Positions 15,625 to 51,873 of a stretch of DNA of 64,000 nt are shown here, in pieces. This DNA is from Alphaproteobacteria bacterium (GTDB taxonomy: Bacteria > Pseudomonadota > Alphaproteobacteria > SP197), in the NCBI GenBank assembly GCA_964291265.2, contig OZ219747.1, positions 2,240,001-2,304,000 of the forward strand, written 5' to 3'. Position numbers and translations under genes: made by a program. The notes beneath the pieces were generated by a model, which saw only the letters and a list, made by a program, of their open reading frames with translations, was not told where the DNA came from and did not search any database. The first letter of the stretch is position 1. Every line of letters begins with the position of its first letter.

Positions 15625-15653
15625 TTGACTTACTAGGCCGGTGAGCCTATGAG
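15625..15653 (+). promoter_or_regulatory. Putative sigma70 promoter of the MTase-tnpC unit (copy B)
   Basis: TTGACT-17 nt-TATGAG. Confidence 0.45.
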
Positions 15654-15681
15654 TTGCCCTCTGTCATGAGGGGAGCGGCCG

Positions 15682-16350: not shown

Positions 16351-17737
16351 CCGTCTCGCGCTGGCGCGAGGACATCGCCGCCCAGGACGAGGCTTTCACG
16401 TGCCTTCAGGACCTGTTCAGTCCACACTCCTTCGCCGTGACTGCCGTCAAGGCCCTCCGGGATTGGGGCCAGGGGATGTTGCGCCTGAGTGAGGCGCTGG
16501 TCGGGGAGATCGAGGCGCTGGAGCGGGAGAACACCGGCTTGCGCGAACGGATTGATGCACTCGAGCGCAGCGCCGCGCTCGACAGCTCCACCAGCTCCAA
16601 GCCACCGGCCAGCGACGGTCCGAAGAAGAAGAGCGGAAACCGACAGAAGCGCACCCGGAGCCAGCGCGGCAAGTCCGACAGGCCCAGTGGCGGTCAGCGC
16701 GGCCACGAGGGAGTCACCCTGAAGCAGGCCGAGAACCCGGACCACGTCGTCGATCATGCTCCGTCTGCCTGTAAGGGCTGCGGCGCGCCGCTGTCGGATG
16801 ATGACCGTCACGCAGAACCCGTCTGTCGGCAGGTCTTCGACATGCCCGAGCCGTAGCCCCTCGAGGTCACCGAACATCGCGCCCATCGCTGTCTCTGCGC
16901 CGCCTGCGGCGCTGTGACAACAGCCGCCTTCCCGCACGGCGTGAGCGCCCCGGTCCAGTACGGGCCGCGCATCACCGCCTGGGTGACCTACCTGTTGCAC
17001 GCCCAGTTCATTCCCGAGAAGCGCGTCGCCGAGGTCATGAGCGACCTCTTCGCCGTCAGGATCTCAACCGCCACCATCGCCGCCATGGGCAGGCGCACCG
17101 CCCGGCGCTTCGAGAGCTTCCTCGATCATGTCGCAGAGATCATCCGCACCCAAGCACCGGTCAAACACCTCGACGAGACCGGCATCCGCATCAACGGCCA
17201 GACCCACTGGCTCCATGTGCTGTGCACCCCCTTGCTCACCATCCTGCGCATCGCCACCGGGCGCAAACACATCGACGAGACACTCAACGGCATCGTCATC
17301 CATGACGACTTGGTGTTGATGGCTGCATAGAACGGCGGGATTTCGGCGATTTGCCGCGCTTTGTCAGGGTCGTGTTTCTTCCCTGTTGTTAGGTCCTATT
17401 GTCACGTCCTGTTGTCGTGGTTTGAGTGTTCGGCTGGTTGTCTCCCCGAGCGCCGCCGTCTTTTCCTATTGTCGTTTTGGTCCGGTTCGGGTTCCGTCGA
17501 CCTCTGCTTCGGTCTTGGTGACGGTTGCCGGGAGGGTTCCGGTTCCGAGGCACTCGCGGGATCGTCTGTCTTCCCTGTGGGCGGGTCGCGTTGTCCGGTC
17601 CCGGGGCGGCGTTTTTGCCGCCGCCCCGGGTGGATGCTAGATCGGCATCAAGAGAAAGAGCGATGCGATGCCGGGCGGAGTTGTGACGCCCCCCGGCGCA
17701 GCACCCGGACGAGCCGGTCACGGGGGACCGAACTCCC

Positions 17738-18268
17738 GTGTATTGTCGAGCCATTTTGCGTCCGGGTCCACCCCCGCTCTCGAGACGGACGGTGTGCACG
17801 ACAGGACGACTGTTCAACTGCAGGCGGTGTCAGCGGCAGGTTGTTCTCTGCCGGTCGTGTGACCGGGGGCATGTGTATTGCTCCAAGGAGTGCAGGGAGC
17901 GGTCCCGGATCGAGCGGCGCCGCGCGTCGCGTCGTCGCTACCAGAGCACGCTGAAGGGCCGTGAGACGGGCCGTCACCGCCAGCGGCGTTACCGGCTCCG
18001 CAAGGCGGAGGAGGCGCGTGCGTTGAAGGCCAGGGCGGCGATGGTTGCCGAGATCATGGACACGCAGACGTCTGCTGTGGTGCTGCTTGGCGACGTTCCG
18101 GCGGTGTCTGGAGACGCCGGTTCTGAAGAAATCGTTACGGACCACCCTTCCCGACTGCTGCCGACCTCCCTACCTGCGGTTGTGAAGGCGCAAGAGCGAC
18201 GCGAATCGCCGCTTCGGTGCGCCCGGTGCGGACGGGTCGTGACGCATGTGGTGCTGAGGGACCTGTGA
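17738..18268 (+). CDS. Cys-rich, Arg-rich hypothetical protein upstream of istA (start uncertain)
   Basis: CxxC...CxxCDRGHVYCSxEC followed by a basic helix and a C-terminal CxxC; frame conserved in copy 2. Confidence 0.7.
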   Translation: MYCRAILRPGPPPLSRRTVCTTGRLFNCRRCQRQVVLCRSCDRGHVYCSKECRERSRIERRRASRRRYQSTLKGRETGRHRQRRYRLRKAEEARALKARAAMVAEIMDTQTSAVVLLGDVPAVSGDAGSEEIVTDHPSRLLPTSLPAVVKAQERRESPLRCARCGRVVTHVVLRDL

Positions 18269-18300
18269 TGCGGCGTTGAGGAACCAAAGGGAGGGAGTTC

Positions 18301-19794
18301 ATGGCGATCGACGAGGACACGCGGGCGACGATCGTGCGGCTGTCGCGGGCCGAGGGCTGGGCTGTGGGGACGATTGCCCGGCATCTCGGCGTGCACCACG
18401 GCACGGTGACGCGGGCGCTCAAGGCGTCGGGGCAGGAGCGGCGGCCGCGGGCCAAGCTCATCGACCCCTTCGTTGCCTTCCTCGGGGAGCGTCTTGAGGC
18501 GTCGCCGGACCTTCCGGCCAGCACGCTCTGGCGACAGGTCGTGGCCCTGGGCTACCGCGGCGGCGAGGATCACTTCCGTCACGACCTGCGCCGCCTCGGG
18601 CTGAGGCCGGTGAAGAGGCCCGAGCCGTCACTGCGGCTGAGCTTCCTTCCGGGCGAGCAGGCGCAGGTTGACTGGGCCGAGTTCGGGAAGGTCCGCATCG
18701 GCCGGGCGGAGCGCAGGCTCATGGGGCTTCTCGTCACCCTCAGCTACTCGCGCCAGACTGTCCTGAGCCTGTTCCACGACGCGCGGATGGCCAGCTTCCT
18801 GCAAGGCCATGTCGAGGCTTTCGCGGCATTCGGGGGTGTGCCGCGGAGGCTTCTGTACGACAACCTGAAGAGTGCCGTGGTGACGCGCCGCGGCAAGGCG
18901 GTCACCTATCATCCGATGCTGCTCGGCCTCGCGGCCCACTATGCCTTCGAACCGAGCGCCGCCTGGCCCAGGAGCCCGCAGGAGAAGGGCCGCGTGGAAC
19001 GCCGTGTGCGCTTCGCGCGCACCGGGTTCTTCGCCGGGCGCGACATCACGGTCCCGCTCGGCGAGCTCAACGCCGCAGTTCGGGAGTGGTGCTTCGGCGC
19101 CGCCGCGGAGCGGCCCTGGCCGGACGACGACAGTCTCCTGGTGCGGGACGCCTTCGCCCGGGAGAGGGAGCACCTGATCGTCCTTCCCGCCGATCCCTTC
19201 CCGCATCACGAGGTCCGCCCGGTGCGCATCGACAAGACCTGCCACGCCCGCTTCGACACCAACGACTACAGCGTTCCGGGTAGCTTCTCCAAGGCCCTGC
19301 TGACGCTGGTCGCCGACCGCGACGAGGTTCGCATCCTCGACGGCGCCGACGAGGTCGCGCGCCACCGACGCTCCTACGACAGGAAGCAGGCCGTCACCGA
19401 TCCGGAGCATGCCAGGGCGATCGCCGCGGGCAAGCGGCGGGCCCGCTCCATGAGCGTCCGCGACCGGGTCCTGCGCACCGTGCCGCGGGCCGAGGAGATG
19501 CTGGCGCGCGCCGGGACCAACGGGCGCAACGTGGCCTCCTGCGCCCGGATGCTGGAGACGCTTCTCAACGCGCACGGCGCCGACGCTCTCGACCGGGCTG
19601 TCGCCACGGCGCTGGAGCGCGGCTCGTGCCACCCCGAAACCGTGCGCGTCATCATCGAGGAGCGCCGCCGGGAGCAGGGCCTGCCGCCCCTCAGCATCGC
19701 CGACGACGGCCGCGGCGGCCGTGGCACGACGCCGCGGGGGACCGCTCTCGACGCCTACGACAGGCCCGAAGCCAGCGCCAGGAACAAGACATGA
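18301..19794 (+). CDS. istA: IS21-family transposase IstA
   Basis: N-terminal HTH, PGEQAQVDW, LSYSR, LYDNLKSAV, KGRVER, FDTNDYSVP. Confidence 0.93.
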   Translation: MAIDEDTRATIVRLSRAEGWAVGTIARHLGVHHGTVTRALKASGQERRPRAKLIDPFVAFLGERLEASPDLPASTLWRQVVALGYRGGEDHFRHDLRRLGLRPVKRPEPSLRLSFLPGEQAQVDWAEFGKVRIGRAERRLMGLLVTLSYSRQTVLSLFHDARMASFLQGHVEAFAAFGGVPRRLLYDNLKSAVVTRRGKAVTYHPMLLGLAAHYAFEPSAAWPRSPQEKGRVERRVRFARTGFFAGRDITVPLGELNAAVREWCFGAAAERPWPDDDSLLVRDAFAREREHLIVLPADPFPHHEVRPVRIDKTCHARFDTNDYSVPGSFSKALLTLVADRDEVRILDGADEVARHRRSYDRKQAVTDPEHARAIAAGKRRARSMSVRDRVLRTVPRAEEMLARAGTNGRNVASCARMLETLLNAHGADALDRAVATALERGSCHPETVRVIIEERRREQGLPPLSIADDGRGGRGTTPRGTALDAYDRPEASARNKT

Positions 19795-20492
19795 GCGAGC
19801 TCAGGGAGCGTGCCCGGGCGCTCGGCCTCCACGGGCTCGTCGAACGCTGGGACGAGGTCGCCGGGACCGCATGGATCGAGGAGGTGGTCAGCGGCGAGGA
19901 ACAGGCCCGCAGGGCCCGCAGCCACGAGCGCCGCCGCGCCGCGGCGCGGCTGCCCGCCTTCAAGCCCCTGGCGGACTTCGACTGGACATGGCCGCGCGAC
20001 ATCAGCCGGGCTCATGTCGAAGCGCTCCTCGGCCTCGGCTTCGTCGACCGTGCGGACAACGCCGTGCTCGTCGGCGGGCAGGGCACCGGAAAGACCATGA
20101 TCGCTGCCAACGTGGCTCACCAGGCCCTGCTGCACGGCCACACCGTCCGCTTCGAGAAGGCGCCGGAACTGCTCGAGGCACTCGCCGAGACCGTCTCGCG
20201 CAGCGAGCTGCGCCGCCGCCTCGCGATCCTCGCCAGGCCCCGCCTGCTCGTCCTCGACGAAATCGGCTACGTGACCCTCGAAAGCCACCATGCCGACATC
20301 CTCTACGCCATCGTCTCGCGGCGCTATCAGCGCCGCTCGACCATGGTCACGACAAGCCTCGCCTTCGCCCAGTGGGACCGCGTCTTCCCCAGCGCCTCCG
20401 GCATCGCCGGCACCGTCGACCGGCTCATGCACGACGCAACCCTCATCTCCATCGACAGCGACTCCTGGCGGCTCAGGCGTGAAACCCGATAA
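19791..20492 (+). CDS. istB: IS21-family ATPase IstB
   Basis: LADFDW, GGQGTGKT Walker A, LLVLDEIGY Walker B, DRLMH, SWR. Confidence 0.93.
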   Translation: MSELRERARALGLHGLVERWDEVAGTAWIEEVVSGEEQARRARSHERRRAAARLPAFKPLADFDWTWPRDISRAHVEALLGLGFVDRADNAVLVGGQGTGKTMIAANVAHQALLHGHTVRFEKAPELLEALAETVSRSELRRRLAILARPRLLVLDEIGYVTLESHHADILYAIVSRRYQRRSTMVTTSLAFAQWDRVFPSASGIAGTVDRLMHDATLISIDSDSWRLRRETR

Positions 20493-21372
20493 ACCCCGCC
20501 GCGTCGACTTCGACGCCGTCAAGCGCATGCCGTTCGAACGCATCGCCGCCGACTGGGGATACGTCCGCGACGAACAGGCCTCGACACGCGCCAACCCCGT
20601 CCTGTGCGCACCCGGCCTGCCGAAGCTCGTCACGAAGTGCCTCAACAACGGACACTGGGTCTACTTCAACACCCAGAACGATGAAGACAACGGAACCGTC
20701 ATCGACTTCATGCTCAACCGCGGACTGGCCTTCGCCGACATCTGCACCCGCTTCACAGCACCCGACGCCGCGCCACGCGACTTCCGCAGCCTCTGGGCCG
20801 CGGCAACGCCCGATGCGGCCCCGGACTGGCTCACCGGGCGCGGCATCCTCCCGGAGACCCTCGACACCTGCCGCCCCCTGGTCCGCCGCGACCACAACGG
20901 ACGCGTCCTCTTCGCCCATCGCAACAGGAAGCGAAAGCTCACCGGCTTCGAGATCGGTCCCCCCGACGGACCGAAACGCTTCGCCACCGGTGGAACCCGA
21001 AGCCTGTTCGCCGTCCGCGCCGGAACCGCCGCGGACCTCGAGGCCCTCGTCATCACCGAAAGCGCCGTCGACGCCCTCAGCCTGGCCCAGATCGACCAAT
21101 GTCCCCCCAGCCACGCCTTCCTCTCCACCGCCGGGGCACCCTCGCGAAGACAGCACGAACAGATCAGCCTCGCCGCAAGCAGCCTGCCCAACGTCAGGAC
21201 CATCGTCCTCGCCCAGGACCACGACGAGGCCGGAGAGCGACAGGCCGAAACCCTGCGCAAAAAGATGAAGCTCCCCTCCCACGTCTCGTTCCACAGACGC
21301 AGACCGCCGGAAAACGCCGACTGGAACGACGTCGTCAACGCCAGGACCAAAGAACCACAAGCGAGATCATGA
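20479..21372 (+). CDS. Toprim-domain primase-like protein (DUF3991/Toprim type)
   Basis: GTVIDF, WLTGRGI, GFE, VITESAVDALS, STAG, AQDHDEAG, DWND. Confidence 0.8.
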   Translation: MKPDKPRRVDFDAVKRMPFERIAADWGYVRDEQASTRANPVLCAPGLPKLVTKCLNNGHWVYFNTQNDEDNGTVIDFMLNRGLAFADICTRFTAPDAAPRDFRSLWAAATPDAAPDWLTGRGILPETLDTCRPLVRRDHNGRVLFAHRNRKRKLTGFEIGPPDGPKRFATGGTRSLFAVRAGTAADLEALVITESAVDALSLAQIDQCPPSHAFLSTAGAPSRRQHEQISLAASSLPNVRTIVLAQDHDEAGERQAETLRKKMKLPSHVSFHRRRPPENADWNDVVNARTKEPQARS

Positions 21373-21398
21373 CCACGTCCGTCACAAGGAGACCACTC

Positions 21399-21689
21399 AT
21401 GCCCCTCACGCCCGCCGAAAAGCAGCGGCGATACCGGGAACGGCGCAAGGCCGGCATCCCTCCCGTCCACACCCCAAAGCACCGTGACCGGCGCTCGCGA
21501 CCGCAACGCTGGAACGACGCCGTGGCCGAACTGCGCGCCCTGCAGGACGAATGGCGTGACCACCTCGACAGCATCCCCGAAAGCCTCCGTGACACGCCTT
21601 ACGGAGAACGCCTGCAGAGCGTCGCCGATGCCGACATCGAGGCCCTCGAGGACATCGAACCGCCACGCGGCTACGGAAGGGATACGTGA
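21399..21689 (+). CDS. Small hypothetical protein with a basic N-terminus
   Basis: MPLTPAEKQRRYRERRK start with AGGAG RBS; intact in both element copies. Confidence 0.65.
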   Translation: MPLTPAEKQRRYRERRKAGIPPVHTPKHRDRRSRPQRWNDAVAELRALQDEWRDHLDSIPESLRDTPYGERLQSVADADIEALEDIEPPRGYGRDT

Positions 21690-22260
21690 TCCCGCAAGAC
21701 CCTTGAACGCGGTCACGCGTTACCATCCAGGAATGAGAACGTCTCACCCCGACGCGCCGCTCAGCCTCCCCGGGAAACTCCCGGGCCGTCCAAACGACAC
21801 CGCATCACGAGACTGCCGCAGCCGCTGGCCGGACTGGCTTACAGGTCGCAGCATCCGCCCGAAAACACTCGACGCCTGCCGCACCCTGCAGGACGAATGG
21901 CGTGACCGCCTCGACAGCATCCCCGAAACCCTCCGTGACACGCCTTACGGAGAACGCCTGCAGAGCGTCGCCGATGCCGACATCGAGGCTCTCGAGGACA
22001 TCGAACCGCCACGCGGCTACGGAAGGGACACGTAATCTCGCAAGACCCTTGAACGCGGTCACGCGTTACCATCCAGGAATGAGAACGTCTCACCCCGACG
22101 CGCCGCTCAGCCTCCCCGGGAAACACCCGGGCCGTCCAAACGACACCGCATCACGAGACTGCCGCAGCCGCTGAGCCGCAGCAACGCCCGATCCGCCGCC
22201 GGACTGGCTCACAGGTCGCAGCATCCGCCCGAAAACACTCGACGCCTGCCGCACCCTGCG
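21538..22260 (+). repeat. About 346-bp tandem duplication in the right arm of the element
   Basis: CCCTGCAGGACGAATGGCGTGACC begins at both 21538 and 21884. Confidence 0.85.
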
Positions 22261-22475
22261 CCGCCGCAACCGCAACGCACGCAGCCTCTTCGCCCAGCGC
22301 AACAGAAACCGTCAGCTCTCCAGCCTCGAGATCGTCCCGCCCGACGAACCACGACGAGGACGGAGAACGCCAGAACAAGACCCCGCGCAAAAGCCTGAAG
22401 CTCCCCTCCCACATCACGTTCCACAAACGCCGAACGCCAGAAAACGCCGACCGGAACGACATCGTCAACGTCAAT
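22150..22475 (+). pseudogene. Degenerate, internally deleted duplicate of the Toprim gene
   Basis: Colinear similarity to ~20775-20975, then jumps to ~21220-21340. Confidence 0.75.
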
Positions 22476-24479
22476 GCAAGACCAATGGGATCCAACAATA
22501 GGCAGAAAACAAAGACCGGGCGGACCTTCGTCCAATGCCGCACGTTCTCCTGTCGTGGTCACCCACTCACACGATCAGCGCCCAAAAGAGCGGTTCTCCG
22601 CCAATATCCCGCCGTTCTAAATCGCCGCCGACACTTGGCCACTTACTTCACTCTCGAGGGCGTGCGCCACGGTGCCTGCAACGCCCATCACCTGCGCGCA
22701 CTCCAGGCCCTGATCGAGATCGAGAAGGAAGACTGGGCCACCGCCATGCACAGGCTCCTCATCCGTGCCAACAGAGCCGCCCGCTTCGCCCGCAAGAACG
22801 ACCGCGACATCCCCGCTTCACTCCTCGCCCGCATCTCGCAAGCCTGGGACAGGATCCTCGAGCAGGCCATCGCTTCCCACGAACAGAGGCCGCCGCTCCA
22901 GCCCGGAAAGCGCGGACGACGAAAACGCCGCATCGGCCACAACCTCGCGCTTCGCCTTCAGAAGCACAAGGACGGCTGCCTGCGCTTCCTCACCAACCCG
23001 CAAGTCCCGTTCTCCAACAACCAGGCCGAGCAAGACTTCCGTATGAGCAAGCTGCGCCAGAAAATCTCGGGCGGCTTCCGATCCATGCAGGGCGCATGTG
23101 ACTTCGCCAAGCTGCGATCCGTCATCTCCACCGCCCGAAAACAGGGCTGGAATGTCCTCGAAACACTGGCTCACCCTGATCCCATACAGCTGATCCCGAA
23201 ACTGCGCTTCTGACATCCCTCCTCGGCGCCATCAGACCGCAGCCATCAATCCACCTCCCGTCAGGACTCGGCGAAATTAGACCTGGGCAGTTACGCACGG
23301 GTTGCGTCGCCTGCGCGAAGGCTTTCCCCTGTGCAACCGTCTCATCCGGGAGATTCACGGGGTCTTGCTCGGTCGCGGTCGCGGCCGCAACAGGGCGCCC
23401 GGAGAGTTTCGCCGCTCAAAAACTGGATCGGAGGCCGTCGCCCCGGGGTGGCGCGCTTCGTCCCACCTCCGGTTTCCGCGGTTGCCGATTGCATGTCCGG
23501 GCTCGAACGCTTCATTGCCGCTGACAACGGCACATTGCCCCTCGTCCTGCGGGCAGGCCTCGCTCATGTACAGTTCGAGACCATCCACCCGTTCCTCGAT
23601 GGGAATGGTCGGGTAGGACGCCTCCTGATCTCGCTCATGCTGCATCATGGCGGCGTCTTGCGCGAGCCGCTTCTGTATCTGAGTCTCCATTTCAAGCAGC
23701 ACCGTGACGACTACTACGTTCTCCTCAACGATGTGCGGTACCGAGGCGACTGGGAAGCTTGGCTTTCGTTCTATCTCGACGGGGTGGCGGAGACCGCCGA
23801 AGGTGCGGTCGAAACCGCGAAGCGACTGCTGGCGCTGTTCGAGGAAGATCAGGCCAGGATCCGGCAGACAGGACGGGCGGCGGGGTCGGCGCTGCGCGTA
23901 CATCAGGCGTTGCGCGAGCGTCCCATCGGATCGATCAGAAAACTGGCCGGGCGCGCAAGCCTTTCCTTTCCAGCGGCATCGGCAGCGGTGAGGAATCTGC
24001 AAGACCTGGGCATTGCCCGGGAATTGACGGACAAGAAGAAGAACCGGCTCTTCGGTTACGACCGCTATCTGGCCATTCTGGGCGAAGGGACGTAACCATG
24101 GTCATCGGCCGACACTGCCGGTTTCGGACCGGCATCCGGCGAAACGGCCTCCAGGCTGAACAGTGCTGGCCAACTTCCGCCCGCCTTCAATCCAGAGCCA
24201 GTCGCCGTTCCCGGGAATCGCTCCCTGCCGCCATGCCGCGACTCTCCGTTCCCCTGATGCCTGCCACGCTTCCTTGCCGTGCCAGCCTCTCACGCCGTTG
24301 ACCGGAGAGCAGGTGTCGTGGGCCGCAACTCGTTCTTGGCCCCGTGGTCTTGATGAACGCCCGGCATGCGGAATCGTGACGGCTCGCGCCTGCGGCAGGT
24401 TTCCAGGCTACCGTGCCGGTGGCATGGCGCGAGTGTGCGTCGGCGAAGGGCTGAAGCGGGCCAGTCGATGGTCGCAACG

Positions 24480-39979: not shown

Positions 39980-40074
39980 TCAGTCGTAGCGCAGGTCGTT
40001 CAAACGCCAGTAGGCCTTACTCCCCTTCAGTTTGTCGTTCTCTTCAATCATGTTCCATGGGGTCTGGCCAGCCG

Positions 40075-40995: not shown

Positions 40996-41182
40996 CGCGC
41001 GCATTCGGGTCAGCGCCAGCGTCAAGACAACGGGATACGTCCACCAACGTGGCTCGGTTGAAGAAGTCATAGGTGTTCCAGTCGGAACAGGTGAGCGCCT
41101 TCAGGCAGATTGATGATGCGTTGATCGGGCAATTTAGTGGACATGAGCTTTCGCGCTGCGCTTGGTTTGCGGTTCTTGAAGG

Positions 41183-42046
41183 CTACTTGGAAGGGAAGGC
41201 TGGTGTTCGTGCCTTGAGGACGTCGTTCCAGTCTTTGTGTCCGTCTGGGGGTCTCATGCGGAGAGCTCTTGGGTCTTGGCTGACGAGGCGCTCGGCGGCC
41301 TGTTCTCCGACGGGATCGGCGTCGAAGGCGACGAGGATGCGCTTTGGCGTCCAGGCTTCGGCCCATGTTGGGAGACGGTAAGCGATGCCGGCGGTTGACA
41401 GGATCACGGTAGCGGATTGCCGACATTCCTTGAGGCACCATGCGGAGAGGGCGTCGATGGCGCTTTCGGTGATGATGATGGTGCGTGGCATGGAGCGGTC
41501 CACGGGGATCCAGAAGCTGCCGGCGGCCTTGCGTGATCCTCGCGCCATGGCTCTGTACTGCTTTCCGTCTGCGTTGGGGACGGTACCGACGATCTCGGCG
41601 CCGGAGAGGTCTCTTTGTGCGTTGGTGCATGTGAAGACGGCGTTTCTGCGTTCGTCGGCGGCGACGAGGCCGTGCTGTCGGCAAGCGTCCAGGCAACGGT
41701 CTGGCAGGCGGCGGTCATGGGCGAGGTAGTGGCGTACGGCGTGCCAGGTTTCCTCGCAGTGCGTTGGTGTTCTCGGCCCCTTGCCGCCGGAGCGTGCGGT
41801 GAGGAGTGCGACGGCGTCGTTGAAGCTGCAGCGGTGTGCATGCATGACGAGATCGATGGCGCCGCCACCGCCGGACTGGGTGATGTGGTCGAACCAGCGT
41901 TGTCGGTTGACGCTGATGACGGATCCGTGGCGCTTGAAGCGTCGCGGGTCGCGCGGGTCTCTTCGGTAGCCGAGCCGCAGGGCGAGTGGTTCGAGGGGCT
42001 GGTTGCGGATGTCATCGAGATGCTGATTGTCCCAGGACCGGATCAT
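41183..42046 (-). CDS. Toprim-domain primase-like protein (DUF3991/Toprim type)
   Basis: WFDH..GGGGAIDLVMH, YLAHDRRL, NAVF, IITESAIDALS, STAG, AFDADPVG, KDWND. Confidence 0.82.
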   Translation of the reverse strand: MIRSWDNQHLDDIRNQPLEPLALRLGYRRDPRDPRRFKRHGSVISVNRQRWFDHITQSGGGGAIDLVMHAHRCSFNDAVALLTARSGGKGPRTPTHCEETWHAVRHYLAHDRRLPDRCLDACRQHGLVAADERRNAVFTCTNAQRDLSGAEIVGTVPNADGKQYRAMARGSRKAAGSFWIPVDRSMPRTIIITESAIDALSAWCLKECRQSATVILSTAGIAYRLPTWAEAWTPKRILVAFDADPVGEQAAERLVSQDPRALRMRPPDGHKDWNDVLKARTPAFPSK

Positions 42047-42180
42047 GGTCTGTCGAGCCTCCTGCGTGGTGGACGGGGGGTGGTTCCCGTTGGCGGTTCC
42101 CACCTGAACTCCCAGGGTGAACGGGAACCGGGAACCGGGAACCGCCTGGCGTCGGGGCGTTTTGCGCCTGGTTGTTGCGG

Positions 42181-43128
42181 TCAGGCTTTGGCGACGCGAT
42201 AGGCACCGGGACCGTCCTGTGCGACACGTCCTTCCTGGACGAGCTTGGCTAGAAGCGTGGCGACGGTCGTGTTCCGTGTTGGGACGCGGTCCCGGACCTG
42301 GCGCAGCGAGAGCGGGGCATCGGCGTCGGCGAGGACCTGGACGATGCGCTGTTCGGGGGTTGGCGGCTGCGGCCTGGCGCCGTCGGGTTCCTGTTGCCGC
42401 AGCTGCAGGGCGGCTCCGTTGCCGCTGTCGGTGAGTTCGATGTCGAGATCGGCGAGTCCGGGTGCGGCGCGGTGTTCGACGGTCATGAGGATGGTTTCGT
42501 GGCGGCGCCGCAGGTAGAGGTTGCTGTCGCCCCATGCGTGCAGCTCGCTGCTTCCGCGCAGGGCCTGTCCGGGCCGGCTGGCGGCGCTCTTGCGTGCGTG
42601 GTGGACGAGCAGCACGGCGGCGCCGGAGTGTCGCTGCACGTCGCGCAGGAAGCCGAGGATCGGCGCGATCTCGGCGACGGCGTTTTCATCGACGCCGTGC
42701 AGGCGGACGAGGGGGTCGAGGATGAGCAGGCGGGAGCCGTGACGCTCGACGGTCTCGAGCAGGCTCTGGCGGTCGGTTGGGTGGTCGAGGCGCAGTGCGG
42801 GGACGTCGATGACGGCGATGTCGAGGGTGTCGAAGTCGGCGCCGGCTGCGGCGGCGATGCCCTGGAGGCGGCGTCGCACGATGTGGCCGGCGTCCTCGGC
42901 GGCGAACATGAGCACCGGTCCGGGGTGCACGGCCGGGAAGCGGCGCAGACAGGGGACGCCGGCGGCGACGGCGACGGCGAGATCGAGGGCGAGGAAGGAC
43001 TTTCCGCACTTGGGTTCGCCGCCGATGATGCCGACGGCCTCGCGGCCCCACAGGCTGTCGACGAGCCACTGCCCCTCGGTTGGCCGGTCCTCGAGTTCGG
43101 CCGGGCTGCGGGTTGGCAGGCCGATCAT
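42181..43128 (-). CDS. AAA_25 / RepA-like helicase-type ATPase with a C-terminal HTH-like region
   Basis: WLVDSL, GGEPKCGKS Walker A, FAAED, LLILDPL Walker B, LLVHHARK, LRGSS. Confidence 0.85.
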   Translation of the reverse strand: MIGLPTRSPAELEDRPTEGQWLVDSLWGREAVGIIGGEPKCGKSFLALDLAVAVAAGVPCLRRFPAVHPGPVLMFAAEDAGHIVRRRLQGIAAAAGADFDTLDIAVIDVPALRLDHPTDRQSLLETVERHGSRLLILDPLVRLHGVDENAVAEIAPILGFLRDVQRHSGAAVLLVHHARKSAASRPGQALRGSSELHAWGDSNLYLRRRHETILMTVEHRAAPGLADLDIELTDSGNGAALQLRQQEPDGARPQPPTPEQRIVQVLADADAPLSLRQVRDRVPTRNTTVATLLAKLVQEGRVAQDGPGAYRVAKA

Positions 43129-43955
43129 CGTGTGCGCCTCGGCGGGATGGGTTCGCCCCAGGTTTCGAGGAAGAGCTTTTCGTCGAGCACCTCGCGGTCG
43201 GTGTCGAGGGCGACAGCGAGGAGGTTGTCGGCGAGGATGGTCAGGGAGCGCGGATTGCCGTCTGCATGGACGACGAGGGTCTCCTTGAGGCCGGGGGTCA
43301 TGAGGCCTGGATTGCCGGCGGCGTCGAGCAGGTGGTCGAGCAGGCGGAGCAGTTCGTCGGGTTCGCAGCGCGTCATGACGAGGCGTTGACGGACCCGCGA
43401 GGCGACGGCTTGCAGGTCGGGGCTGTGCAGCTTGGCGAGCAGGCGGCTGTCGCCGGCCAGGACGACGCTGAGGATGGCGCGCGAGTCGAACTCCGTGGAG
43501 GCGAGCAGGCGCAGTTCGGTGAGCACGGCCTGCGGCATCTCCTGGGCCTCGTCGACGAGCAGGACCGGGCGCATGCGGGTGTCCTCGAGATGGGTGAGCC
43601 AGCACTCGCGCAAGGCCTTGAAGCCGGCCCAGAGGTTCCGGCGCAGGGTCGTGATGCCGAAGAGGTCGGTCATCTCGCGGTAGAAGTCTGCGGTGCTCGA
43701 CGAGGGATGGGCGAGCACGGCGACGTCGAGGCCCTCCGCGGTCTCGAGACGCTCGTCGAGCAGGCGCAGGGCGACGCTCTTGCCGGTGCCATGCTCGCCG
43801 GCCACCACGGCGAAGCCGCCCTGGCGCACGAGCTGACGCTCGATCCTGCGGCAGAAGCTGTCGATCGCGGGCGTTGCGAGAAGGCCCTCGACCGGCAGGT
43901 CGGCGGCGAAGGGGTTCCACTTGAGGCCGTAATGGGTGAGGTGTTGGCGGTTCAT
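43125..43955 (-). CDS. ExeA-family AAA ATPase (transposition helper)
   Basis: YGLKWNPF, GEHGTGKS, LLVDEAQ, ELRLL, VLAG, GNPR; ATGA-coupled on both sides. Confidence 0.88.
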   Translation of the reverse strand: MNRQHLTHYGLKWNPFAADLPVEGLLATPAIDSFCRRIERQLVRQGGFAVVAGEHGTGKSVALRLLDERLETAEGLDVAVLAHPSSSTADFYREMTDLFGITTLRRNLWAGFKALRECWLTHLEDTRMRPVLLVDEAQEMPQAVLTELRLLASTEFDSRAILSVVLAGDSRLLAKLHSPDLQAVASRVRQRLVMTRCEPDELLRLLDHLLDAAGNPGLMTPGLKETLVVHADGNPRSLTILADNLLAVALDTDREVLDEKLFLETWGEPIPPRRTR

Positions 43956-44776
43956 GACATGTCTCCCTGATCGTTGTTGTCCTTGCCTTCGTCGTTCGGG
44001 CCGGCCTCCTTGCCGAAGGGCAACCATGCCGGGGGCAGGCCGGTGGCGTCCTGCTCGTCGCGGAGGCGCTTGAGCAGCGGCGCCGGCCCGGTCTGTGGCT
44101 TCACCTCGTCGTCTTCTCTCCGGCGCCCGGTCCGGCGGCGGAGCCCCTCGGCGTTGCGAGACTTGTCCACCGGACGCAGGGTCGAGATGCGGTCCCCGGT
44201 GCGGCCGTCGACCATGTCGATGCCGGAGAGGTCCCAGCGGGCGACGCGCAGGTCGATCTCGCGCAGGTGGCGCCACGGCGCCGGCAGTTGATAGCGGACA
44301 CTCGCCACCGTCACCGTGGCGTCGGAGCGTCGCACCTTGCGACGCATGTTGATGGCTGCATAGAACGGCGGGATTTCGGCGATTTGCCGCGCTTTGTCAG
44401 GGTCGTGTTTCTTCCCTGTTGTCAGGTCCTATTGTCACGTCCTGTTGTCGTGGGTTCAGTGTTCGGCTGATTGTCTCCCCGAGCGCCGCCCGTTTTCCTA
44501 TTGTCGTTTTGGTCCGGTTCGGATTGTTCCGTCGGCCTCTGCTTCGGTCTTGGTGACGGTTGCCGGGAGGGTTTCGGTTCCGAGGCACTCGCGGGATCGT
44601 CTGTTTTCCCTGTGGTCTGGGTCGTGTTGTCCGGTCCCGGGGCGGCGTTTTTGCCGCCGCCCCGGGTGGATGCTAGATCGGCATCGAAAGAAAGAGCGAT
44701 GCGATGCCGGGCAGAGTTGTGATGACGCCCCCCGGCGCAGCACCCGGACGAGCCGGTCACGGGGGACCGAACTCCC

Positions 44777-45307
44777 GTGTATTGTCGAGCCATTTTGCGT
44801 CCGGGTCCACCCCCGCTCTCGAGACGGATCGTGTGCACGACGGGACGACTGTTCAACTGCAAGCGGTGTCAGCGGCAGGTTGTTCTCTGCCGGTCGTGTG
44901 ACCGGGGGCATGTGTATTGCTCCGATGAGTGCAGGGAGCGGTCCCGGATCGAGCGGCGCCGCGCGTCGCGTCGTCGCTACCAGAGCACGCTGAGGGGCCG
45001 TGAGACGGGCCGTCACCGCCAGCGGCGTTACCGGCTCCGCAAGGCGGAGGAGGCGCGTGCGTTGAAGGCCAGGGCGGCGATGCTTGCCGAGATCATGGGC
45101 ACGCAGACGTCTGCTGTGGTGCTGCTTGGCGACGTTCCGGCGGTGTCTGGAGACGCCGGTTCCGAAGAAATCGTTACGGACCACCCTTCCCGACTGCTGC
45201 CGACCTCCCTACCTGCGGTTGTGAAGGCGCGAGAGCGACGCGAATCGCCGCTTCGGTGCGCCCGGTGCGGACGGGTCGTGACGCATGTGGTGCTGAGGGA
45301 CCTGTGA
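44777..45307 (+). CDS. Cys-rich hypothetical protein (copy 2; start uncertain)
   Basis: Near-identical to 17738-18268. Confidence 0.7.
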   Translation: MYCRAILRPGPPPLSRRIVCTTGRLFNCKRCQRQVVLCRSCDRGHVYCSDECRERSRIERRRASRRRYQSTLRGRETGRHRQRRYRLRKAEEARALKARAAMLAEIMGTQTSAVVLLGDVPAVSGDAGSEEIVTDHPSRLLPTSLPAVVKARERRESPLRCARCGRVVTHVVLRDL

Positions 45308-45339
45308 TGCGGCGTTGAGGAACCAAAGGGAGGGAGTTC

Positions 45340-46833
45340 ATGGCGATCGACGAGGACACGCGGGCGACGATCGTGCGGCTGTCGCGGGCCGAGGGCTGGG
45401 CTGTGGGGACGATTGCCCGGCATCTCGGCGTGCACCACGGCACGGTGACGCGGGCGCTCAAGGCGTCGGGGCAGGAGCGGCGGCCGCGGGCCAAGCTCAT
45501 CGACCCCTTCGTTGCCTTCCTCGGGGAGCGTCTTGAGGCGTCGCCGGACCTTCCGGCCAGCACGCTCTGGCGACAGGTCGTGGCCCTGGGCTACCGCGGC
45601 GGCGAGGATCACTTCCGTCACGACCTGCGCCGCCTCGGGCTGAGGCCGGTGAAGAGGCCCGAGCCGTCGCTGCGGCTGAGCTTCCTTCCGGGCGAGCAGG
45701 CGCAGGTTGACTGGGCCGAGTTCGGGAAGGTCCGCATTGGCCGGGCGGAGCGCAGGCTCATGGGGCTTCTCGTCACCCTCAGCTACTCGCGCCAGACTGT
45801 CCTGAGCCTGTTCCACGACGCGCGGATGGCCAGCTTCCTGCAAGGCCATGTCGAGGCTTTCGCGGCATTCGGGGGTGTGCCGCGGAGGCTTCTGTACGAC
45901 AACCTGAAGAGTGCCGTGGTGACGCGCCGCGGCAAGGCGGTCACCTATCATCCGATGCTGCTCGGCCTCGCGGCCCACTATGCCTTCGAACCGAGCGCCG
46001 CCTGGCCCAGGAGCCCGCAGGAGAAGGGCCGCGTGGAACGCCGTGTGCGCTTCGCGCGCACCGGGTTCTTCGCCGGGCGCGACATCACGGTCCCGCTCGG
46101 CGAGCTCAACGCCGCGGTTCGGGAGTGGTGCTTCGGCGCCGCCGCGGAGCGGCCCTGGCCGGACGACGACAGTCTCCTGGTGCGGGACGCCTTCGCCCGG
46201 GAGAGGGAGCACCTGATCGTCCTTCCCGTCGACCCCTTCCCGCATCACGAGGTCCGCCCGGTGCGCATCGACAAGACCTGCCACGCCCGCTTCGACACCA
46301 ACGACTACAGCGTTCCGGGTAGCTTCTCCAAGGCCCTGCTGACGCTGGTCGCCGACCGCGACGAGGTCCGCATCCTCGACGGCGCCGACGAGGTCGCGCG
46401 CCACCGACGCTCCTACGACAGGAAGCAGGCCGTCACCGATCCGGAGCATGCCAGGGCGATCGCCGCGGGCAAGCGGCGGGCCCGCTCCATGAGCGTCCGC
46501 GACCGGGTCCTGCGCACCGTGCCGCGGGCCGAGGAGATGCTGGCGCGCGCCGGGACCAACGGGCGCAACGTGGCCTCCTGCGCCCGGATGCTGGAGACGC
46601 TTCTCAACGCGCACGGCGCCGACGCTCTCGACCGGGCTGTCGCCACGGCGCTGGAGCGCGGCTCGTGCCACCCCGAAACCGTGCGCGTCATCATCGAAGA
46701 GCGCCGCCGGGAGCAGGGCCTGCCGCCCCTCAGCATCGCCGACGACGGCCGCGGCGGCCGTGGCACGACGCCGCGGGGGACCGCTCTCGACGCCTACGAC
46801 AGGCCCGAAGCCAGCGCCAGGAACAAGACATGA
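45340..46833 (+). CDS. istA: IS21-family transposase IstA (copy 2)
   Basis: Near-identical to 18301-19794. Confidence 0.93.
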   Translation: MAIDEDTRATIVRLSRAEGWAVGTIARHLGVHHGTVTRALKASGQERRPRAKLIDPFVAFLGERLEASPDLPASTLWRQVVALGYRGGEDHFRHDLRRLGLRPVKRPEPSLRLSFLPGEQAQVDWAEFGKVRIGRAERRLMGLLVTLSYSRQTVLSLFHDARMASFLQGHVEAFAAFGGVPRRLLYDNLKSAVVTRRGKAVTYHPMLLGLAAHYAFEPSAAWPRSPQEKGRVERRVRFARTGFFAGRDITVPLGELNAAVREWCFGAAAERPWPDDDSLLVRDAFAREREHLIVLPVDPFPHHEVRPVRIDKTCHARFDTNDYSVPGSFSKALLTLVADRDEVRILDGADEVARHRRSYDRKQAVTDPEHARAIAAGKRRARSMSVRDRVLRTVPRAEEMLARAGTNGRNVASCARMLETLLNAHGADALDRAVATALERGSCHPETVRVIIEERRREQGLPPLSIADDGRGGRGTTPRGTALDAYDRPEASARNKT

Positions 46834-47531
46834 GCGAGCTCAGGGAGCGTGCCCGGGCGCTCGGCCTCCACGGGCTCGTCGAACGCTGGGACGAGGTCGC
46901 CGGGACCGCATGGATCGAGGAGGTGGTCAGCGGCGAGGAACAGGCCCGCAGGGCCCGCAGCCACGAGCGCCGCCGCGCCGCGGCGCGGCTGCCCGCCTTC
47001 AAGCCCCTGGCGGACTTCGACTGGACATGGCCGCGCGACATCAGCCGGGCTCATGTCGAAGCGCTCCTCGGCCTCGGCTTCGTCGACCGTGCGGACAACG
47101 CCGTGCTCGTCGGCGGGCAGGGCACCGGAAAGACCATGATCGCCGCCAACGTGGCGCACCAGGCCCTGCTGCACGGCCACACCGTCCGCTTCGAGAAGGC
47201 GCCGGAACTGCTCGAGGCACTCGCCGAGACCGTCTCGCGCAGCGAGCTGCGCCGCCGCCTCGCGATCCTCGCCAGGCCCCGCCTGCTCGTCCTCGACGAA
47301 ATCGGCTACGTGACCCTCGAAAGCCACCATGCCGACATCCTCTACGCCATCGTCTCGCGGCGCTATCAGCGCCGCTCGACCATGGTCACGACAAGCCTCG
47401 CCTTCGCCCAGTGGGACCGCGTCTTCCCCAGCGCCTCCGGCATCGCCGGCACCGTCGACCGGCTCATGCACGACGCAACCCTCATCTCCATCGACAGCGA
47501 CTCCTGGCGGCTCAGGCGTGAAACCCGATAA
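46830..47531 (+). CDS. istB: IS21-family ATPase IstB (copy 2)
   Basis: Same protein as 19791-20492. Confidence 0.93.
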   Translation: MSELRERARALGLHGLVERWDEVAGTAWIEEVVSGEEQARRARSHERRRAAARLPAFKPLADFDWTWPRDISRAHVEALLGLGFVDRADNAVLVGGQGTGKTMIAANVAHQALLHGHTVRFEKAPELLEALAETVSRSELRRRLAILARPRLLVLDEIGYVTLESHHADILYAIVSRRYQRRSTMVTTSLAFAQWDRVFPSASGIAGTVDRLMHDATLISIDSDSWRLRRETR

Positions 47532-48411
47532 ACCCCGCCGCGTCGACTTCGACGCCGTCAAGCGCATGCCGTTCGAACGCATCGCCGCCGACTGGGGATA
47601 CGTCCGCGACGAACAGGCCTCGACACGCGCCAACCCCGTCCTGTGCGCACCCGGCCTGCCGAAGCTCGTCACGAAGTGCCTCAACAACGGACACTGGGTC
47701 TACTTCAACACCCAGAACGATGAAGACAACGGAACCGTCATCGACTTCATGCTCAACCGCGGACTGGCCTTCGCCGACATCTGCACCCGCTTCACAGCAC
47801 CCGACACCGCGCCACGCGACTTCCGCAGCCTCTGGGCCGCGGCAACGCCCGATGCGGCCCCGGACTGGCTCACCGGGCGCGGCATCCTCCCGGAGACCCT
47901 CGACACCTGCCGCCCCCTGGTCCGCCGCGACCACAACGGACGCGTCCTCTTCGCCCATCGCAACAGGAAGCGAAAGCTCACCGGCTTCGAGATCGGTCCC
48001 CCCGACGGACCGAAACGCTTCGCCACCGGTGGAACCCGAAGCCTGTTCGCCGTCCGCGCCGGAACCGCCGCGGACCTCGAGGCCCTCGTCATCACCGAAA
48101 GCGCCGTCGACGCCCTCAGCCTGGCCCAGATCGACCAATGTCCCCCCAGCCACGCCTTCCTCTCCACCGCCGGGGCACCCTCGCGAAGACAGCACGAACA
48201 GATCAGCCTCGCCGCAAGCAGCCTGCCCAACGTCAGGACCATCGTCCTCGCCCAGGACCACGACGAGGCCGGAGAGCGACAGGCCGAAACCCTGCGCAAA
48301 AAGATGAAGCTCCCCTCCCACGTCTCGTTCCACAGACGCAGACCGCCGGAAAACGCCGACTGGAACGACGTCGTCAACGCCAGGACCAAAGAACCACAAG
48401 CGAGATCATGA
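47518..48411 (+). CDS. Toprim primase-like protein (copy 2)
   Basis: Near-identical to 20479-21372. Confidence 0.8.
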   Translation: MKPDKPRRVDFDAVKRMPFERIAADWGYVRDEQASTRANPVLCAPGLPKLVTKCLNNGHWVYFNTQNDEDNGTVIDFMLNRGLAFADICTRFTAPDTAPRDFRSLWAAATPDAAPDWLTGRGILPETLDTCRPLVRRDHNGRVLFAHRNRKRKLTGFEIGPPDGPKRFATGGTRSLFAVRAGTAADLEALVITESAVDALSLAQIDQCPPSHAFLSTAGAPSRRQHEQISLAASSLPNVRTIVLAQDHDEAGERQAETLRKKMKLPSHVSFHRRRPPENADWNDVVNARTKEPQARS

Positions 48412-48437
48412 CCACGTCCGTCACAAGGAGACCACTC

Positions 48438-48728
48438 ATGCCCCTCACGCCCGCCGAAAAGCAGCGGCGATACCGGGAACGGCGCAAGGCCGGCATCCCT
48501 CCCGTCCACACCCCAAAGCATCGTGACCGGCGCTCGCGACCGCAACGCTGGAACGACGCCGTGGCCGAACTGCGCGCCCTGCAGGACGAATGGCGTGACC
48601 GCCTCGACAGCATCCCCGAAACCCTCCGTGACACGCCTTACGGAGAACGCCTGCAGATCGTCGCCGATGCCGACATCGAGGCCCTCGAGGACATCGAACC
48701 GCCACGCGGCTACGGAAGGGATACGTGA
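48438..48728 (+). CDS. Small hypothetical protein (copy 2)
   Basis: Near-identical to 21399-21689. Confidence 0.65.
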   Translation: MPLTPAEKQRRYRERRKAGIPPVHTPKHRDRRSRPQRWNDAVAELRALQDEWRDRLDSIPETLRDTPYGERLQIVADADIEALEDIEPPRGYGRDT

Positions 48729-50822
48729 TCCCGCAAGACCCTTGAACGCGGTCACGCGTTACCATCCAGGAATGAGAACGTCTCACCCCGACGCGCCGCT
48801 CAGCCTCCCCGGGAAACTCCCGGGCCGTCCAAACGACACCGCATCACGAGACTGCCGCAGCCGCTGGCCGGACTGGCTTACAGGTCGCAGCATCCGCCCG
48901 AAAACACTCAACGCCTGCCGCACCCTGCAGGACGAATGGCGTGACCGCCTCGACAGCATCCCCGAAACCCTCCGTGACACGCCTTACGGAGAACGCCTGC
49001 AGATCGTCGCCGATGCCGACATCGAGGCTCTCGAGGACATCGAACCGCCACGCGGCTACGGAAGGGACACGTAATCTCGCAAGACCCTTGAACGCGGTCA
49101 CGCGTTACCATCCAGGAATGAGAACGTCTCACCCCGACGCGCCTCTCAGCCTCCCCGGGAAACCCCCGGGCCGTCCAAACGACACCACATCACGAGACTG
49201 CCGCAGCCGCTGAGCCGCAGCAACGCCCGATCCGCCGCCGGACTGGCTCACAGGTCGCAGCATCCGCCCGAAAACACTCGACGCCTGCCGCACCCTGCGC
49301 CGCCGCAACCGCAACGCACGCAGCCTCTTCGCCCAGCGCAACAGAAACCGTCAGCTCTCCAGCCTCGAGATCGTCCCGCCCGACGAACCACGACGAGGAC
49401 GGAGAACGCCAGAACGAAACCACGCGCAAAAGCCTGAAGCTCCCCTCCCACATCACGTTCCACAAACGCCGAACGCCAGAAAACGCCGACCGGAACGACA
49501 TCGTCAACGTCAATGCAAGACCAATGGGATCCAACAATAGGCAGAAAACAAAGACCGGGCGGACCTTCGTCCAATGCCGCACGTTCTCCTGTCGTGGTCA
49601 CCCACTCACACGATCAGCGCCCAAAAGAGCGGTTCTCCGCCAATATCCCGCCGTTCTAAATCGCCGCCGACAACGCACCTTGATGCGGAAGGCGGCCCGG
49701 AGTTCGCTGCTGTCCGGGCATGTCCGCGAGGCGTCCTCGCTGTCGATCACGCGCCTGAGCGGCGTGACCCCCGTCTCGCGGTGTACGCGGCGGTGATACT
49801 CGCGCTCGAACCAGATGACGGTGGCGTCGTTCAGGTCCTGCAGGGTCAGGGTCTCGACGTTCTCGAGCATCGCCATCAGGCGGCCCTCGACCTGGGCGAA
49901 CAGCACCTCCTGCTTGCCGTTCTGGTACGGGCTGCGGACAAGCGTGTGGTGGTGCAGCACGCCGAGGGCGTGCAGTCCCTCCTGCACCTCCCCGGCCGTC
50001 ATCGCCGATCCGTTGTCGGTCAGAAGGGACCGCGGCAGCCCTCGCTTCATGAAGGCCTGGCTGATGCCGTGAACGAAGATCTCCGTGGTCTCCCCGAGAT
50101 ACCACTGCATGTGGCAGACGAGACGCGAATGGTCGTCGATGAAGCTGAGCAGGATCGGCGTCCTCCACTCCCCGGACGGCGTCAGCACGCGACAGGTCCG
50201 CGCATGGTGGAAGTCGGCGTGCCACAGGGCATGGCTGCGCGAGACCTCGTAGCTCAGCACCTCGCGCCCCTCGACCGCAGGCCGCTCCGCTTCACCACCG
50301 AACTTCCGCTGCCGCCGCCGCCGCTCCAGGCCCGCCGAACGCATGACCCGGGTCAGCGTCGCATAGGACGGCATCGGCCCGAGCGAAGGGTCGGCCTCGA
50401 CCAGCGCGCAAAGGTTGTCGTGGTGGAGCTGAACCGACCACGTGGGGTGCGCCCTGTACTGGTCGCGCAAGGCCGCCATCAGCAGGGGCGAGACGCTCCG
50501 CGCACGACCGGCGTCGCAGCGCACCCGACGGCGCAGCGCCCGCACCGGATCCCGGTCGGCCGACCGCGCCTTGTAGTACCAGCGCTCGATCGTCGACACC
50601 GAGAACCGGATCGTGCCGCCCCTGACGGGATGCTCCCAGTCCCGCCGCGACAGCCGTTGAAGCTCGGCCCGCAGACCCCCCTTCGGCGGCGGCGACGCCA
50701 GCAGCGGGCCAACCACCGCAAAGCGCAGCCGCGTCCAGGCGTCCCCGGCGTCCGCTTCGTCCTTCGTCACCACGACAGCCTTCCTCCCTCGTCGTCCCAT
50801 GGGAGGAAGGCCCTATACGGTC

Positions 50823-51437
50823 CTATGTCATCGCACTACAGGCACTCTCTGCGGGCGGCGACAGACCATCGACGATCCTGCAGAAGCCGGTCCACGGCAT
50901 GAGCCAGACCAGGCTCCGCAGAAGGCGCGATCGAAACGATCCGCCGCGCATCAAGCGCACCAGGGCCACAAGCGGAGGCTCGTCCGCCTCCACCGCCAGA
51001 TCGCCACGTTTCCAGCGCCACGCCGCCGTCGCCGGGAACCTCTCCCGCCACCATCGACGCCACCGGCCAAGCGTCCTCTCCGGGATGCCAGACATGCGGC
51101 TCGCCTTCGCCAGGGGAACACTGCCGCACAGAACCAGGAGGCTCGCAGCCAGGTATACCGGCGCCGCACGGAACCTCCGGCCGAAGAAGCGCACCGAGGG
51201 CGGAGTCGTCCGGCTCCTGCACTCAGCACAGCAGAAGCTGAAACGGCGGTTGTCGCCGCGAAGAGCAGGCGCAAGCGCGTGCGGCTTGCGCGGATACCGC
51301 GCGCTGTGAAGACGACCGCCGCAATGCGGGCATCCCTCCAGGCGGCAGCGCTCCGCCTCGGCCGCATCAATCCTCTCAAGGAGAGGCCAGACATGAGCGC
51401 AGGAAAGTATGGGACCCGGGAAGGAAACGTGCGACAT
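50823..51437 (-). CDS. Zn-finger/HTH accessory protein preceding the transposase (DUF6431-like)
   Basis: CPHCGGRLH, RFSFCCAECRSRTTP, RTLGRWRRWW. Confidence 0.7.
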   Translation of the reverse strand: MSHVSFPGPILSCAHVWPLLERIDAAEAERCRLEGCPHCGGRLHSARYPRKPHALAPALRGDNRRFSFCCAECRSRTTPPSVRFFGRRFRAAPVYLAASLLVLCGSVPLAKASRMSGIPERTLGRWRRWWRERFPATAAWRWKRGDLAVEADEPPLVALVRLMRGGSFRSRLLRSLVWLMPWTGFCRIVDGLSPPAESACSAMT

Positions 51438-51873
51438 TGACTGGCCTCCGGTGATCTCACCGTCACGGAGACAAGCCCCTCGGCCGACTTCTTGCAAGTC
51501 GGTCGAGGGGCAATCACCCCAGACCAGCAGACAATTCAAGCAAAACCGACGGAATCCACGTCAAAAATCGCGCAAACGCTTAACAGGGCGCTGCCGAGAT
51601 CGGAGCGGTGCAGACTGACACGGCGCACGCCGTTGCCAGGATCAGTGCTACCTGCATGATTCGCACGGCGTGACCCCTCCATGTGCTTGACCGTATGTAT
51701 CATCGAATGAGACGGAGTGGCCACAGGAAGCGGTCACGTTTCACTGGGGAGTGATTCTCTTGTGGTCGGCTTTCGTTGCAGCGATGATCTCTTGGCGCGA
51801 GCGTGACCTGCGCCACCGGCCGGTTGTCGTTCATGCGGGTGCTTTCATCGGCCGCGGCGGTTCAGGCGCAGAC

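Follow-up and report, generated by a model that had tools for sequence, protein, structure and literature searches.

A mobile IS21-family element of an alphaproteobacterium keeps a primase-like Toprim gene coupled to istB

We analysed a 64,000-nucleotide stretch of an alphaproteobacterial genome (assembly GCA_964291265.2, contig OZ219747.1, positions 2,240,001 to 2,304,000; the whole stretch is called the window below) and found two copies of a 5,320-bp IS21-family insertion sequence (IS), copy 1 at 17314-22633 and copy 2 at 44347-49672, in which a gene for a primase-like Toprim protein lies behind the transposition genes istA and istB. Likely captured from a conjugative element, this Toprim gene is coupled to istB and has diverged in step with istAB under purifying selection of similar strength; its product, primase-shaped in a structure model, retains the predicted catalytic residues. 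The reading that we favour, tentatively and somewhat short of an even chance, is that Toprim serves as an optional priming accessory for copy-out transposition. The element is laid out as follows (window coordinates; ORF, open reading frame).

17309..17313, plus strand: left target-site duplication CTTGG, read from the sequence (right partner, 22634-22638)
17314..17363, plus strand: left terminal inverted repeat, 50 nt, beginning TGT, 70% complementary to the right end
17792..18268, plus strand: Cys-rich protein, 158 aa from the likely GTG (longest frame from 17738), found ahead of istA at 79 of 80 related loci
18301..19794, plus strand: istA, DDE transposase, 497 aa, D124/D187/E233 (NF033546, 222.8 bits, cut-off 160)
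19791..20492, plus strand: istB, 233-aa AAA+ helper ATPase with Walker A and B motifs at 95 and 152 (PF01695, 171 bits, cut-off 24.1)
20479..21372, plus strand: DUF3991-type Toprim protein, 297 aa
21399..21689, plus strand: small basic ORF, 96 aa from the likely ATG (longest frame from 21369), 1,114 homologues
21690..22584, plus strand: decayed tail, with the second unit of a 346-bp-period duplication and the relic of a second Toprim gene
22585..22633, plus strand: right terminal inverted repeat, finishing ACA, from comparison of the ends
44347..49672, plus strand: second full element copy, flanked by ACGCA, all five ORFs open

The unit is genuine and moved recently. Copy 1 is bracketed by CTTGG and copy 2 by ACGCA, each on both flanks, and the two are 98.97% identical across 5,327 alignment columns, in agreement with a preliminary description of this DNA made from the sequence alone. 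Its further claim that the whole unit had moved by transposition is borne out by the 4.83-Mb genome, which holds 46 left and 40 right ends, 32 of them paired as full-length copies. Target duplications flank 27 of these copies (22 of 5 bp, four of 6 bp and one of 7 bp; five copies have none), and with nested cases counted in, 31 end pairs have a common target duplication. The insertions are simple, being single units with mostly 5-bp duplications, and the element totals 196 kb, or 4.1% of the host genome. Copy 1 interrupts an IS66 transposase gene, of which public contigs contain an empty allele (joint 17307 to 22633), and the copy-1 target has eight empty-site matches elsewhere in the genome.

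The five genes run in the order Cys-rich ORF, istA, istB, Toprim and small ORF and are open in both window copies, as had been described; across the 32 genome copies, the Cys-rich, istA and istB frames are open in all 32, Toprim in 31 and the small ORF in 28. istB lies directly downstream of istA and overlaps its stop, and the Toprim start (20479) overlaps the istB end (20492) by 14 nt; against NF038214, istB scored 191.4 bits, slightly below the cut-off of 200. The element resembles IS21 and IS5376 in its IstA residues D124/D187/E233, which bear the same numbers as in IS5376 IstA (PMC10122671), in its AAA+ helper IstB, in terminal inverted repeats that end in CA (TGT...ACA, about 50 nt), in its mostly 5-bp target duplications and in its weak target preference. 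Unlike these elements, which have two ORFs between the repeats (PMC10122671), it is 5.3 kb long, and its operon also includes a conserved Cys-rich gene upstream and a primase-like gene downstream. The layout thus departs from the canonical two ORFs, with five ORFs of which four are conserved across the clade, and the extra ORFs make the element a variant that still lies inside the transposase-defined IS21 family. Canonical IS21 also has a second subterminal repeat at each end (L2/R2), which a simple scan with one 20-nt core did not find here (no site with at least 12/20 matches within 120 nt of either end). Because related elements are only 4.05-4.7 kb long, the 5.3-kb length reflects the passengers and tail of the host's element. 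Searches of Pfam, NCBIfam and PHROGs identified no polymerase, helicase or replication initiator among the five ORFs.

We further surveyed the linkage of Toprim to istB in the best 80 of 546 loci related to IstA. Toprim follows istB in 27 of them (12 of the host-element type, from two genomes, and 15 of another type) and is lacking in 53, five of which cannot be judged; in the 12 closest loci it stands directly behind istB without exception. A search of 33 genomes of the host's order with both proteins revealed the identical four-gene order in G411, G420 and G427, together with one G420 copy whose Toprim is truncated, a G424 sequence holding only the first part of istA, and a G418 element that belongs to the other clade and has no Toprim. 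In total, the IstA clade of this Toprim has seven element lineages, from six genomes, whose sequence reaches istB, and in 7/7 of them Toprim follows, so the linkage, which the preliminary description had proposed to survey, is not sporadic among close relatives. Full-length Toprim copies number 27 in G431 and four in G430, and a Toprim search in 400 other genomes of the host's class yielded no close relative and six weak matches.

Phylogeny and substitution patterns extend this result. IstA trees were built from a single locus for each genome or lineage (59 and 58 rows). A branch with support of 99-100 sets apart the elements that carry this Toprim, with no Toprim-less member on their side, and carriers of the other type fall on a separate IstA branch of nine (seven with a full Toprim, one truncated and one lacking). 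The IstA, IstB and Toprim trees of six elements agree on both strong splits. The ratio of non-synonymous to synonymous substitution rates (dN/dS) relative to the two closest elements was 0.35 and 0.37 for Toprim, 0.34 and 0.35 for IstA, and 0.29 and 0.30 for IstB; in remoter pairs, where synonymous sites are near saturation, it was 0.4-0.7 for Toprim and 0.3-0.8 for istA and istB. Given this fixed linkage, co-divergence and purifying selection, Toprim is therefore not a sporadic passenger.

We then focused on the Toprim protein itself, for which the preliminary description had named Toprim_2 and DUF3991 as the profiles to search; Toprim_2 was recovered (E 3.5e-13), and the DUF3991 match stayed under the cut-off. 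The protein has a zinc-less N-terminal domain followed by a T7/DnaG-like RNA polymerase domain and retains R121, E194, D198, D247, D249, D281 and D284. Its structure model (predicted local distance difference test score, pLDDT, 89.7) had Aquifex DnaG and T7 primase as top Foldseek matches, and aligned with T7 primase at Z 15.5 and a root-mean-square deviation of 3.3 Å across 177 residues, so that the protein resembles the T7 gp4 primase domain and DnaG in both the RNA polymerase domain fold and the metal-binding acidic residues. In the profile alignment, with numbering counted from its printed form, R121, K166, F168, E194, D198, D247 and D249 correspond to T7 R84, K128, F130, E157, D161, D207 and D209, and the positions of T7 K122 and R124 are occupied by E158 and G160. 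For the T7 counterparts of E194, D198, D247 and D249 we assume the roles generally ascribed to these acidic residues. R84, K122 and K128 of T7 have been termed essential (PMC9198812). A clade alignment of 32 near-full-length members (30 of 48 close database hits, including this protein, and two from genomes, with shorter or weaker hits left out) showed that five of the six motif acids are invariant, compared with 2/30 other acidic positions: E194, D247 and D249 in all 32 members, and D281 and D284 in 31/31 rows with a residue. On this alignment, selection has preserved the predicted metal site, except for a single ligand that is relaxed in half of the clade.

A copy-out/paste-in route has been proposed for IS21 (PMC11208146; bioRxiv 10.1101/2023.06.07.543989), and in copy-out transposition replication turns a figure-eight into a circle (PMC7780238). 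During this step, the 3'-OH of the donor flank would prime one strand, and the displaced strand of 4-5 kb would require new primers. The element-encoded primase could supply these without waiting for the host primosome, which would raise the copy-out rate without being required for it. Such a role is similar to that of IEE, a primase-type enzyme on the copy-out step of IS elements (bioRxiv 10.1101/2023.06.07.543989), but IEE is an archaeo-eukaryotic primase (AEP) PrimPol-helicase that lies outside the IS and promotes excision, whereas the TOPRIM primase proposed here is encoded inside the element.

Several observations weigh against a priming role. Of the 53 Toprim-less loci, 19 hold a complete three-gene element bounded by both ends and a target duplication, and the primase is therefore dispensable for this transposase subgroup. 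The host encodes an intact DnaG (a 670-codon frame with its motifs), and copy-out of IS911 reportedly needs host DnaG. Unlike T7 gp4 and DnaG, the element Toprim has neither conserved zinc ligands (no conserved cysteines at residues 38-80 over the 32 rows) nor a fused or neighbouring helicase, none being present in the element, and the profile alignment places E158 where T7 has the essential K122; the E158 trait and the zinc-less N-terminal domain are common to conjugative-element relatives as well. D198 (T7 D161) is N in 17/32 clade members, and a sister IS21 lineage keeps a catalytically dead Toprim. Finally, no right-left (circle or tandem) junction was seen in the host genome, nor did any of the five joints listed for three contig-level public runs show one; because rare forms are lost from contigs, a junction missing there is not proof of absence. 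We regard the primase as an enhancer and not a requirement because three-gene relatives move and the host has DnaG. The extended IS21 subgroup suggested at first is supported as one mobile unit that keeps a primase-like gene; self-priming is a plausible role for it but cannot be a requirement of this transposase subgroup, given the 19 Toprim-less elements and the sister lineage with a dead Toprim. Compensation for a lost host primase was considered as a separate explanation and rejected, since the host DnaG frame is intact.

A rather doubtful, though serious, alternative is that Toprim is a non-catalytic transposition accessory that binds single-stranded or branched DNA, or IstA/IstB, and thereby hands the intermediate to host replication, regulates activity or takes part in target choice, comparable to the dead enzymes of Tn7-like elements; the intact site would then be an early stage of decay. 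This explanation gains from the second IS21 lineage (15 of the best 80 loci), which has a separately sourced, catalytically dead Toprim, with the catalytic E lost in 9/9 rows (E to K/G/D) and the second D of DxD lost in 9/9 (DxT). Retention of a dead Toprim there suggests that the retained function can be non-catalytic, and D198N in more than half of the intact clade points the same way. There is also a precedent in TnsF, an inactivated recombinase that serves as a target selector, described in a paper which also notes that none has been reported for IS21 (PMC10293859). The element resembles Tn7-like elements in combining a DDE transposase, an AAA+ ATPase, a putative zinc-finger protein and a captured enzyme that is sometimes inactivated (PMC10293859). 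However, the residues lost in the dead clade correspond exactly to E194 and D249, which are invariant in 32/32 rows of the intact clade. Moreover, no targeting signature was detected: 17/35 insertions run with the leading strand (25-kb and 50-kb skew windows; 16/35 at 100 kb), and 25 target sites with 5-bp duplications have no consensus. The element likewise differs from the Tn7-like systems: Pfam and NCBIfam detected no homology to TniQ, TnsE or TnsF, and its insertions showed no bias for a target site or strand. TnsE-like replication targeting was rejected on the near-even strand split of the 35 insertions.

We consider it improbable that the primase is selected cargo with a job outside transposition, such as second-strand priming in conjugative transfer or a host benefit, although purifying selection is silent on which function is selected and the closest outside relatives do lie in conjugation regions. 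The Toprim clade is the sister group of 26 more distant proteins, and 0/80 metagenome loci of this outer group contain istA or istB. Apart from Toprim itself, 35 proteins sampled from outer-group loci included CagX, TrbI, S26 peptidase, topoisomerase, TraG/VirD4 and integrase families, with 15 assigned to no family. Matches on plasmids comprised 449 records at <60% identity, of which 297 are predicted conjugative and one is fused to a MobV relaxase, and DUF3991 TOPRIM proteins are listed among the genes of integrative and conjugative elements (ICEs; PMC4073490). These neighbours, plasmid matches and ICE listing make a conjugative-element source likely, and Toprim was probably captured from one. 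With the DUF3991/TOPRIM proteins of conjugative plasmids and ICEs it has in common the domain layout, the zinc-less N-terminal domain, the acidic motifs and the sister position in the tree, but identity is 30-40% and the gene stands here behind istB in a transposon without conjugation genes. Against a cargo role, its position overlapping or abutting istB is fixed in every lineage of the clade, Toprims hold the same position in two other transposon lineages, and no further conjugation gene came along.

It is very unlikely that Toprim is a neutral hitchhiker, captured once and spread with the expansion of the element. The element does carry junk, since one of its ORFs is a passenger and its tail contains the remains of a decayed Toprim, and its hosts are IS-rich, hence selection against extra DNA may be weak. 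Yet dN/dS of about 0.35 equals the istAB level, the frame stays open over elements whose IstA identity is only 48-78%, and the adjoining relic decayed whereas this Toprim copy did not, so that neutral carriage is already largely refuted by conservation. Least probable of all is the earlier proposal that the element excises and replicates as an autonomous circle with its own primase, which would fit the high copy number and the neighbouring 5.16-kb transposon that pairs a helicase-like gene with a primase, but finds no support, given the lack of a helicase, initiator or polymerase in the element, the missing right-left junction in the genome and in the joints listed for three public runs (contigs drop rare forms), and chromosomal copies that account for the copy number.

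The dead Toprim type groups with intact Toprims of ExeA-type DDE transposons, and a single clade for both IS21 Toprim types was rejected (p 1.4e-5, from a quick tree with long-branch warnings). A sister relation of the two Toprim-carrying IstA groups was not rejected (p 0.134), and their IstBs join at a support of 56; the history would involve either two captures or one capture followed by replacement. Unrelated ExeA-type DDE transposons of the host and of five same-genus genomes likewise have a Toprim, placed immediately after their ATPase or helicase gene, and one of these transposons is the target of copy 2.

41092..51582, minus strand: different 5.16-kb transposon, target of copy 2, with rve-type DDE transposase and AAA_22 ATPase

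This 5.16-kb ExeA-type transposon encodes a Cys-containing ORF, the DDE transposase, the ATPase, an AAA_25 helicase-like gene and, behind the latter, a DUF3991-Toprim with intact motifs; it is present in six genome copies with 5-bp duplications, two of which are split by the IS21 element. Its helicase and primase pair may be a better candidate for self-replication than the IS21 element. Helicase-less transposons of about 4 kb, with a DDE transposase, an ExeA-like ATPase and an intact Toprim, were observed in G408, G417, G420, G423 and G425 (loci L125-L127 and L129-L132; 15 matches in G423). A broader claim, that DDE/AAA+ transposons repeatedly recruited primases and that this lineage is self-priming, with its own TOPRIM enzyme laying the copy-out primers, is possible, and we advance it with marked caution. 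If self-priming holds, part of the replication machinery would for the first time be shown to come from an IS itself, and the dead-primase IS21 lineage and the helicase-plus-primase transposon of the window would be other stages of the same recruitment.

Our literature search found no IS21 element with a Toprim or primase gene, although subscription papers were thinly covered and ISfinder lay outside the search, and the four-gene form is not described in the available parts of PMC8649781, PMC3281130 and PMC7371123. New here are the catalytically intact lineage, its separate and likely conjugative source, and three-gene relatives that transpose without Toprim. For ATPase-regulated transposition, IS21 provides a structural model; published descriptions give it two genes, and its replicative step is no more than a proposal. 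Three-gene elements and four-gene elements with an intact or a dead primase, all on related IstA/IstB, form a natural set in which it becomes testable how synthesis starts on the copy-out intermediate and whether the element supplies it. They would also offer a first biochemical handle on DUF3991-TOPRIM proteins and on an unannotated Cys-rich accessory of many phyla.

This Cys-rich protein has an N-terminal Cys cluster, a long basic helix and a C-terminal CxxC (model pLDDT 81.7), with six N-terminal Cys kept in 79/79 rows and the C-terminal pair in 76-77, and is predicted to bind zinc. No significant match was found in Pfam, NCBIfam, PHROGs, plasmid or Foldseek searches (best Pfam, zf-MYND, E 0.073), an atlas search returned unnamed clusters only, and its profile matched 2/400 other genomes of the host's phylum; YacG zinc-finger rows had E above 1 and were discarded as no evidence. 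The gene is an older accessory common to the whole IS21 subgroup. The three-gene form of this subgroup (Cys-rich gene, istA and istB; loci L016-L080) is 3.2-3.8 kb long and reaches Pseudomonadota, Planctomycetota, Myxococcota, Acidobacteriota, Verrucomicrobiota and others.

The small basic ORF, in contrast to its earlier inclusion in the unit, is a passenger outside the core. It is broken in 4/32 genome copies. Besides the host, five genomes carry this Toprim, and in the elements of four of these the small ORF was not detected; of the six, only the host and G431 (44% identity) showed it. A homologue (78%) lies on a 1,978-bp repeat of the host genome (C2:2591488-2593465 and three more copies), behind a transposase that we take to be IS110-like. 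Database matches comprise unnamed clusters only, and the family may be a general IS passenger. The tail of about 0.9 kb after this ORF is likewise a passenger. The 346-bp-period duplication has units at 21534-21827 and 21880-22173. A second Toprim gene survives as an internally deleted relic at 22141-22350 (81%) and 22348-22473 (84%); four related elements checked have no such internal duplication or relic.

The surroundings of the insertions were also examined, including the gene split by copy 1.

16914..23213, plus strand: IS66 transposase gene outside the element, target split by copy 1 (pieces 16914-17313 and 22634-23213; PF03050 on both)

Here insertions are nested (window 15123-24095): a Fic-family gene is split (Fic_N 15123-15569, Fic 23331-24095) around an IS66-type unit with a methyltransferase-like ORF (15682-16350), itself split by the IS21 element. 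As a gauge of any preference for mobile DNA, 20/31 insertion sites were matched by an empty site at another place in the genome, a figure whose comparison with other repeats is rough and overlapping. Four element copies lie within other copies of the same element, which therefore has no strict target immunity; such cases occur at host C2 near 295923, 4058043, 4237410 and 4144635-4152391, one of them three deep. At C2:4237410-4258495, two direct copies surround 5.1 kb, of which 4 kb duplicates C2:3654556-3658598, and a 5-bp duplication is common to the outer ends only; the arrangement looks like a composite or cointegrate-type move. About 22% of the host's large contig is repeated DNA, and the genome is bigger than several same-genus genomes (2.8-4.8 Mb), the picture of an IS expansion. 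A promoter scan gave no sigma-70-like site, an Rfam scan gave no match, and terminator-like matches numbered two against 3.3 expected. Elsewhere in the window, a minus-strand gene at 39980-41047 contains 102-bp tandem repeats, presumably ankyrin-like.

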